Below are positions 21,743 to 22,705 of a stretch of 64,000 nt of DNA, in pieces; the first letter of the stretch is position 1, and each line of letters opens with the position of its first letter. The notes below the pieces were generated by a model that worked only from the letters and a program-made list of their open reading frames with translations, did not search any database and was not told the DNA's origin. This DNA is from Escherichia coli 042 (GTDB lineage Bacteria; Pseudomonadota; Gammaproteobacteria; Enterobacterales; Enterobacteriaceae): the NCBI RefSeq assembly GCF_000027125.1, contig NC_017626.1. One strand, written 5' to 3'. The position numbers and the translations under genes are program-made.

Positions 21743-22705
21743 AGCTTGGGTCGGGATTTCAAATCCGATCCCCGTTGATGGGGCCGTTACAGTACGCGCA
21801 TATCCGCTTTATGTGAAACAGGAAGATTTTTCTGATATCACTGCCACAGCAAAACACCAATTTCGTGACCAGTACGCGCGCGAGGTGTATCAGTTGCAAA
21901 ATTTTTTGCAGCTGTGTCCGACCAGTACGCACGCGATGGCGGGGAGCACCATAAAACTGTTCTCTACATAAGACAGAGTGGTGGTGATGTGTTGATTATC
22001 GGCGTATATGCGCACAGGACGCGCTATGACGATGTTTTATGCGGGTACACCAATCACATGTATCTGGTGTGATAAATCGCGTTACATGACCTCTCATGTT
22101 GTGCTGGTGGTTATCACGACGTTCTGAATCTGGCCTTTGCCTGGTATTTTGCGACAAGTACGCGCACGTAGCATCGAAATAATCGGATGGCGTATGCTGC
22201 TGGTAATATGAAGACCGATAGCATTAACCGAAAGGATAAAGACTTCTCGATAACGGCAAGGGGGCTGAATTGCGAGGCGAGATTAAGCAACTGTCTTGAA
22301 CGTAAAAATCATGGAGCAACATGATGGTACGATTCATTCCATTCTTCGTTCTTTCTGAGCATTGCGTTCAGGCTTAGTCAAAATTAGTGTTGCGAGCGGA
22401 CCTATTAGTAATTGTTGGTGCGATGCGCCTGTTATGGATTGTTATGGTTGTGGCAGGCCTGATTAATATCCAGTATGACCACCAGCTATGAGAGGCCACC
22501 TCAGTGGTTCGCAGTTGCAGGTTTGCACTCAGGTTCGCAGGGTTTTGGCTACTTTCACGTGCGAACCTGCAGAATTGCAAAGGACAACTAAGTCCTCTGG
22601 CCAACTCCCGGTTTATGAGCGACACAGTCCGCCTGGCGCATCGTTTTCGTCGAGTGCGCCCATCAGCTTGTCCATGGACTATCCACCACTCGATATTAAA
22701 GTTAA

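Follow-up and report, generated by a model that had tools for sequence, protein, structure and literature searches.

What fills the gap of about 1 kb at positions 21743–22705 of the Escherichia coli 042 DNA analysed here (a 64,000-nt stretch of contig NC_017626.1, hereafter the window), between a small membrane-protein gene and an inverted AlpA-family gene of an integrated island? A preliminary description of the sequence had reported no convincing open reading frame (ORF), several copies of a short motif and palindromic elements, and had proposed a decayed gene, a regulatory array or a recombination scar left by a local inversion. The island belongs to the EcCIMP1-type phage-inducible chromosomal islands (PICIs), which are phage satellites, and the repeated motif is a short segment shared with the small-terminase gene (terS) of the helper phage, accompanied by units that resemble the packaging site (pac) of phage P22. 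Judging from these sequence comparisons, we give about an even chance to the reading that the gap is a degenerate packaging and cargo-junction region of the PICI, in which terS relics have been kept as candidate pac-type signals. Packaging-site units derived from a terminase gene had not been considered in the preliminary description; the evidence favours them.

Both the CAGTACGCGCGCG-type motif and the palindromes were confirmed, and neither is random. With at most one mismatch, AGTACGCRCRCG occurs on the plus strand at 21871, 21924, 22157 and 24184, in agreement with the copies first described near 21872, 21927 and 22158 and the related one near 24190; a further match, at 58858 in nlpA, is attributed to chance. 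The five matches compare with 0.97 expected in the window, and none of 100 shuffles reached five. The 'TACGCGCGCG' motif is part of an 18–23 nt core, TTTCGNGACMAGTACGCGCGCG, and the repeat extends to 17–29 nt (families D1 and D2), with a weaker copy at 21791. All copies lie on the plus strand: the weak copy A (ACAGTACGCGCATA, 21789–21802), core B (AATTTCGTGACCAGTACGCGCGCG, 21860–21882, reading ..AKHQFRDQYAR..), core C (GACCAGTACGCACGCGA, 21920–21936, decaying in some strains), core D (ATTTTGCGACAAGTACGCGCACG, 22146–22168) and, in a block that follows the PerC gene (24139–24195), a pac-like stretch (..TTTTCGGACATCAC..) and then core E (CAATTTCGCGAGCAATACGCACGCG, 24173–24195). The peptide F-R/C-D/E-Q/K-Y-A-R can be read from every copy. 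The cores are irregularly spaced (53 and 233 nt), and the sequence on either side of them is unrelated from one copy to the next. A variant core, E', is found in islands that have the other PerC allele; a core follows each of the two PerC allele types, which are 52% identical. A motif search across related islands, as the preliminary description had proposed, showed that the motif recurs: it is present in 559 of 5426 complete E. coli genomes and, among the 60 matches listed, lies under no annotated gene.

Between cores B and C is a 24-nt palindrome, CAGTTGCAAAATTTTTTGCAGCTG (21891–21914; fold z = -4.6), which is perfect in other strains. It had not been listed before, and is stronger than the inverted repeat that had been, whose arms (22516–22528 and 22559–22571) are indeed complementary at 12 of 13 positions (fold z = -2.5). 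Some other ideas about the repeat were discarded. Alternating purine–pyrimidine (Z-DNA) character is uninformative, as the differences between copies are transitions, which keep the alternation anyway; matches to a C4 antisense-RNA target are only 9 nt long, about chance level; and the repeats associated with the attachment (att) sites of the integrase are GTGTACATA, not the motif.

The island that carries these repeats is about 19.9 kb long (6050–25985) and is inserted between yicC and yicG in the E. coli chromosome. Its left part holds the integrase, an HTH/AlpA gene, an AntA/B antirepressor and an 'ash' region with isrK and C4 RNAs; its middle a TOPRIM/DUF927 primase, followed by homologues of P22 genes 14, 7, 20 and 16 (virion and ejection proteins); and its right part the membrane-protein gene on the minus strand, the gap of about 1 kb, the inverted AlpA gene, iterons, PerC, Doc-toxin cargo and the right end. 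Positions 21700–22720 are 100% identical to strain U15A. Compared with EcCIMP1 of strain MP1 (NZ_CP139039), nucleotide identity is 98.2% over 9.3 kb (8641–17938) and 97.5% over 1.9 kb (21748–23647), all repeat copies of the gap being inside the latter alignment. By annotation, and by Pfam for AlpA and PerC, the island has the EcCIMP1-type gene set of integrase, alpA, primase, DNA-transfer/DUF2824 genes, PerC and an inverted second alpA (alpA_1), and it lacks genes for capsid and terminase proteins. It shares with EcCIMP1 the backbone and the entire gap region at 97–98% nucleotide identity, together with alpA, the antirepressor, the primase, the DUF2824/DNA-transfer genes, PerC and the inverted alpA_1; it differs from EcCIMP1 in its integrase and att, in the alleles of its gene-20/16-type ejection genes and of the membrane-protein gene that follows them, and in its Doc-toxin cargo. 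The integration site differs as well (tRNA-Thr, proA–yagU, in EcCIMP1), and homology to MP1 begins only at 8641; other members of the island type do sit at proA–yagU. Since integrase and att differ while the backbone is 98% identical, the integration module must have been exchanged. The tandem and inverted att-associated GTGTACATA repeats (6054–6106 and 25959–25982) mark the island ends.

EcCIMP1 (19,963 bp) was described as the PICI of E. coli MP1, which excises only upon induction of the P22-like phage vB_EcoP_Kapi1 (Pick, Stadel & Raivio, ISME J 2025; PMC11773190). Kapi1 transduces EcCIMP1 specifically; a chromosomal marker was not transduced, so Kapi1 is no generalised transducer (PMC11773190). 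Neither capsid nor terminase genes were identified in EcCIMP1, and its packaging mechanism was left open and called hard to characterise; the paper mentions neither this non-coding stretch nor any packaging signal (PMC11773190). No intact terS was found at any motif copy of the present island, and none in related islands.

In sequence, the core coincides with the part of Sf6-type small-terminase genes that codes for F-R-D-K/Q-Y-A. When viral contigs were scanned for exact occurrences of the core 16-mer, it turned up 46 times in intact genes of approximately 140–170 aa with the signature ..FxDQYARAREAQAD..KKYGDK, a family that corresponds to Pfam Sf6_terminase (PF20901). Nucleotides 166–183 of Sf6 gene 1, TTTCGCGACAAGTACGCG, match cores D and E' at 17 of 18 positions; against the Kapi1/Sf6 terS, core B (terS nt 166–183) scores 16/18 and core D 17/18. 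The TerS of Kapi1 is the Sf6 protein (PF20901), and the sole core-like site in the 39-kb Kapi1 genome is at terS nt 172. Matches of at least 16/18 to any Kapi1 terS 18-mer in the 20-kb island fall on the cores only, involve one terS site and are all on the plus strand; one of 30 shuffles reached a 17/18 match to a terS 18-mer. Among 55 Sf6-type terS alleles, nt 172–185 are invariant, including four consecutive third-codon positions. The cores are not parts of a surviving terminase gene: ORFs running through them (16–135 aa) have no Pfam match, none is an intact PF20901 ORF of about 140 aa, and a custom family HMM matches only 11–24 codons at the cores, with weak scores.

A second line of evidence comes from P22 itself, whose experimentally defined pac is reportedly a 22-bp site inside gene 3, its terS. 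As annotated in BK000583, P22 pac is GAAGATTTATCTGAAGTCGTTA (gene 3 nt 268–289), and a pac-like unit that matches it at 16 of 22 positions, GAAGATTTTTCTGATATCACTG, lies on the plus strand at 21822–21843, 39 nt upstream of core B. With its 3' flank (21822–21856 against gene 3 nt 268–302), the unit matches at 25 of 35 positions in the same frame, this extended match being a weak one (E 0.005); in P22 and in the island alike, GACCAG is 45 nt away from where the unit starts, and the unit falls in the least variable 50-nt bin of the surrounding conserved module. When the peptides are aligned by eye (P22 REDLSEVVTRA, Sf6 HEDFRDKYAKA), the core comes to lie at the codons held by pac in P22, and it may, on this by-eye alignment, be the Sf6-type equivalent of the P22 pac codons. 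In Sf6, pac reportedly lies in the part of gene 1 that codes for the DNA-binding domain of TerS, which would be compatible with this placement.

Cores and pac-like units also occur together in other DNA. L160, a diverged EcCIMP1-like island, shares 77% identity in its gene-16-like gene and the lipoprotein gene that follows. Past these genes, in non-coding DNA that is otherwise unrelated, one full core occurs together with a second ACAGTACGCGCGCGCG (partial core) and with three P22-pac-like units in tandem. Of these units, the best is 82% identical to P22 gene 3 over 33 nt (E 1e-5) and matches pac at 17/22, and ACAGTACGCGC of copy A also abuts a pac-like unit in L160. Full cores are likewise found in non-coding DNA of the island lineages L137, L102 and L184. 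Within the present island, a P22 gene-3-type terS fragment lies on the minus strand at 10245–10351 (86.9% over 107 nt to gene 3 nt 268–374, E 3e-33). Its start coincides with the first pac base; it matches gp3 residues 87–125 at 67%, is also present in EcCIMP1 and is antisense within a RefSeq 'ash family protein' ORF (10097–11164). The units of the island thus lie in terS-derived sequence, as P22 pac does, and with the Terminase_2-type relic described next, fragments of three terS families are present in one 20-kb island that has no terS gene.

The gap as a whole is a mosaic. Comparison with the 5426 complete genomes divides it into a conserved non-coding module, a pseudogene fragment of a Terminase_2-type terS, the 3' stub of an IS110-family element and orphan DNA linked to alpA_1. 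The suggestion of a decayed gene was right in spirit, with the correction that at least three unrelated relics (the terS-derived units, the Terminase_2-type fragment and the IS110 3' end) are present alongside orphan DNA; no single disrupted gene explains the region. The backbone module of EcCIMP1-type islands (21670–22177, plus strand) contains all repeat units of the gap and is present in 544 of the 5426 genomes (about 10%) at 94–100% identity, always after the ejection-gene module; the genes flanking it vary on both sides, and the EcCIMP1 copy in MP1 is 97.5% identical. It includes the first 14–24 or so codons of the membrane-protein gene (21323–21742, minus strand; PGAP start 21712), the remainder of which differs between island variants. 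This gene sits where P22 has sieA, immediately past the gene-16-type ejection gene, and may encode a SieA. In blastn searches with the module, phages returned nothing besides one cyanophage terS match, which was the lead to the Terminase_2 relic, and plasmids a single misfiled chromosome.

The Terminase_2-type terS relic (22182–22290, plus strand) is frameshifted and truncated at both ends and corresponds to codons ~25–65. Against an intact enterobacterial terS it aligns over 80 nt with 81% identity (E 9e-17); in the window it has a frameshift and a 12-nt deletion and no full reading frame. The copy in strain W4, which reads YRMAYAAGNMKTDSINRKAKELLDNGKIAARVAEFEQ, is better kept (87.6% over 105 nt, E 5e-34). 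The relic has 68% amino acid identity to a TerS that matches PF03592, and a tblastn search against phages gave a match at E 3e-10. Its 3' truncations are nested among variants, at 22213, 22233, 22260 and 22283. Core D was ruled out as the start of this relic, DNA homology to the intact gene starting 12–14 nt past the core. Next is the 3' end of an IS110-family element (22284–22380, minus strand), assigned by terminal identity and consisting of the last ~95 bp, with the transposase-gene end and the terminus; over 89–95 bp it is 94–96% identical to IS110-family transposase 3' ends in about 1900 genomes. Homology ends at 22380, and neither the rest of the element nor its second end was matched; the idea that 22381–22705 is an IS110 left end with bridge RNA was ruled out, as this DNA has no homology to the intact element.

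The remaining 325 bp (22381–22705) carry GGTTYGCAS 9-mers and the 13-nt inverted repeat at 22516–22571. The whole-region RNA fold is unremarkable (z = -1.15), and the sequence was found in only 152 of the genomes, always joined to alpA. The gene to which it is joined (22706–22891, minus strand; Pfam Phage_AlpA, E 7e-13) is alpA_1, EcCIMP1_023 of the published island, by position, orientation and nucleotide identity, and gene and adjoining DNA form a single fixed cassette in about 150 genomes. In EcCIMP1, alpA_1 lies at the far end in opposite orientation and is dispensable for the PICI cycle (PMC11773190). Because the MP1 island matches this region, the 'inverted AlpA' is alpA_1 in its standard place and not the product of a local inversion. 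The idea of a recombination scar was likewise right in spirit, as the mosaic of relics shows, and a scar of an inversion is not supported.

No protein family could be assigned to the gap, in keeping with the first impression of DNA without a convincing ORF: none of the ten ORFs of 41–114 aa in 21693–22832 matches a Pfam or PHROG family at E≤1, and the ORFs across the gap shift in reading frame and size depending on the strain. For the longest variant ORF (123 aa), the only relatives are 41 'hypothetical' ones of 74–210 aa in shifting frames, all from the same locus; a 111-aa ORF in the orphan DNA has no relative except itself, and a 92-aa ORF has no match in phages by tblastn. A structured non-coding RNA or a small protein encoded here is very improbable. 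The module is conserved over ~435 nt, local hairpins in the stretch have z-scores of -2.5 to -4.6, and a 'hypothetical protein' of 60–123 aa is annotated at this place in some genomes; yet larger folds are not better than those of shuffles, the ORFs shift and have no relatives outside the locus, and Rfam 15 gave nothing in the gap at gathering thresholds (64-kb window scanned) and nothing in 21200–24400 at E≤5.

Under the packaging reading, an island that has no terS of its own and is nevertheless specifically transduced, as EcCIMP1 is in MP1, would keep short terS-derived units, plausibly because pac lies inside terS in P22-like phages. On concatemers formed by island replication, the units would be recognised by helper TerS and TerL, which would then begin headful packaging, and two island copies of about 20 kb would fill one head of about 41 kb. 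The Terminase_2 fragment, the IS110 stub and the 325-bp orphan would then be by-products of repeated cargo replacement beside the units. The island length of ~19.9 kb is nearly half that of the Kapi1 genome (39.4 kb), as expected if a headful holds two copies, and would fit headful packaging of dimers.

Several observations weigh against this reading. Module divergence (1.8–4.4%) is about that seen at synonymous sites of the neighbouring gene 16 homologue (pS 1.4–6.6%), and the module carries frameshifting indels of 1–2 nt. Variable sites are no rarer in the cores (11 of 92) than around them (38 of 419), copy C shows decay, and some strains lack the B-to-C interval. Nucleotide similarity between the core and the P22-pac unit is marginal (p 0.01–0.15). 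Invariant runs as long as or longer than that at the core occur elsewhere in the 55 Sf6-type terS alleles, no E. coli terS gene shares 21 nt or more with the core (such matches are confined to these islands), and the gp3-type fragment at 10245–10351 is oppositely oriented. The reported transduction frequency of EcCIMP1 is, moreover, very low (PMC11773190).

Support for selection on the module is weak. As the module drifts at about the synonymous rate, plain junk is a serious rival: the repeat units, the Terminase_2 fragment, the IS110 stub and the orphan would be inert leftovers of phage recombination that persist as the island lineage is young, and the sole function in the stretch would be the promoter and start of the leftward membrane-protein gene. 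We regard this main rival as a real possibility, though a less probable one than packaging. It accounts for the near-neutral divergence, the indels and the lack of extra conservation in the cores, and equally for the variable, frame-shifting spurious ORFs, the deletion and IS-insertion variants and the absence of Rfam, Pfam or PHROG signal. What it leaves unexplained is the presence of four to five same-orientation copies of one 18–23 nt terS piece, a core after both PerC allele types, the L160 cores and three pac-like units at the same position in unrelated DNA, and the pile-up of fragments from three terS families in an island without terS. As to the deletion, the 53-nt B-to-C interval with its palindrome (21883–21935) is lost in a minority of strains (P0003/P0004), in which the flanks fuse to give a 105-aa ORF; the loss is presumably due to slippage between the 17-nt direct repeats around the hairpin.

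Junctions between island variants appear to cluster at the cores, a suggestive pattern that could have arisen from ends cut by terminase or at a recombination hot spot. Homology between variants breaks at 22177, 9 nt past core D, where variable cargo starts, and homology to strain W4 stops exactly at the end of core E (24195), directly followed by the Doc-toxin cargo. One strain has an IS-type insertion about 5 nt past core C, and in one variant (P0035) a junction lies just left of core B. These breakpoints and the unrelated flanks of the cores would be expected if the cores were crossover or insertion sites for cargo exchange, whether as a recombination hot spot or through a site-specific system. 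We nonetheless consider such a role unlikely: just a handful of junctions was seen, core E' forms no boundary, no dedicated recombinase is present and the integrase repeats are of another sequence. An integron-like cassette boundary at every core was ruled out, homology running 0.5–1.7 kb past core E'.

Some further observations concern the cargo and its movement. The Doc-family toxin and its upstream gene (24196–25943) are a cargo insertion; W4 has approximately 70 nt there before the island end. In L006 (NZ_CM151381, 3795–4117), the segment from 22061 on, with core D, the cargo, PerC and what follows, adjoins a truncated rusA of a lambdoid prophage, from which it follows that the right-hand block can move into phages. 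A metagenomic IMG/VR contig (3300045988_004969; L157/L260/L017) has a complete P22-like late operon, from an Sf6-type terS through gene 20, joined to 19137–22910 at 98.7% identity; the junction, at the gene 20/16 boundary, reflects either a real phage–island recombinant or a chimeric assembly.

The repeats could also be binding sites of an island or helper regulator, that is, operators or a helper-activated promoter array for the cargo or the membrane-protein gene. Direct repeats of about 23 nt that are intergenic and beside a divergent gene start would suit such a role, and a weak -35/-10-like pair, read by eye, overlaps copy A on the minus strand. Set against this are the irregular spacing of the repeats, a promoter and terminator scan of the stretch that gave nothing above shuffles, cargo lying downstream of the cores on either strand, and the occurrence of the core sequence within the coding sequence of phage terS, which would not be expected of a regulator site. 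With no Rfam family and no extra conservation of the motif either, the regulatory array of the preliminary description is not borne out, and we think regulator binding quite improbable. A promoter of the phage-RNA-polymerase or sigma-70 type was ruled out, there being no consistent hexamers and no scan matches.

Returning to the packaging reading, the variety of the relics allows a broader, tentative proposal, to which we assign somewhat less than an even chance: satellites may keep a library of short terS fragments (P22 gp3-like, Sf6-like and Terminase_2-like), each a portable pac, since such phages have the recognition site within the very gene that encodes its reader protein. Helpers with different TerS specificities could then package the island, and terminase cuts at the units could be the places at which cargo is acquired.

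Other features of the window lie outside these arguments. A 72-aa ORF upstream of the iterons (23117–23335) has homologues just downstream of core E' in other islands, and in L102 (100–330) its homologue is fused in frame to the core (MGFRDQYARAK...). A hairpin motif, CCTCTGGCTGGC / GCCAGCCAG, lies shortly upstream of several cores and of the 72-aa ORF (23085–23111; L006, approximately 5440–5475; L102, approximately 15–45). The GTTGGTTCA iterons and an AT-rich spacer upstream of PerC (23405–23530) have an inverted partner, about 80% identical, just past the primase gene (15902–16023), a two-site layout reminiscent of P4 ori/crr. Rfam matches in the island are an int-alpA RNA after the integrase (7403–7469) and isrK and C4 antisense RNA in the 'ash' region (10478–10705). 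A second satellite-like island, at tRNA-Sec (selC; 44606 to approximately 57600), has an integrase, a primase and isrK, C4 and c4-a1b1 RNA matches, and is not present at that site in U15A.

EcCIMP1-like modules are present in about one-tenth of complete E. coli genomes, including O111 EHEC and NC101, and a stretch of about 400 bp with units of 18–30 nt is a candidate cis signal for the open question of EcCIMP1 packaging. If the packaging reading is true, the stretch would be a pac-type counterpart to the cos-site mimicry of P4 and the cos-PICIs, and fragments of terS genes could serve as exchangeable packaging tags; if it is wrong, the stretch is ordinary island debris. In either case there is a lesson for annotation, as terS relics underlie the 'hypothetical proteins' predicted at this locus and also part of the 'ash family' ORF.

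P4 with P2 cos, SaPIbov5 and the EcCICFT073-type PICIs with helper cos carry the packaging site of their helper and do not redirect the terminase. The logic proposed here would be the same, in that an element without terminase is packaged because it copies a cis signal read by the helper terminase. Those systems use cos sites and cos helpers, whereas the helper here is a headful (pac) phage and the candidate signal is an array of short terS fragments. The candidate island unit agrees with P22 pac at 16 of 22 positions (25 of 35 with the 3' flank), and on the by-eye alignment the core would lie at the same codon positions; unlike P22 pac, the island units are multiple diverged copies outside a functional terS and of two subtypes (P22-like and Sf6-like), and their packaging role is putative. 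The pac region of phage SPP1 has three sets of direct repeats spanning the start of terS (PMC4737164), and several direct repeats overlapping terS sequence are likewise present in the island. The SPP1 repeats belong to a functional phage and are next to an intact terS, and even there sequence-specific TerS binding is disputed (PMC4737164). Finally, the Terminase_2 fragment, the IS110 stub and the 325-bp orphan are just like the ordinary pseudogene and IS scars of cargo hot spots in prophages or islands; what sets the stretch apart from such scars is an oriented, multi-copy core that recurs in unrelated flanks.

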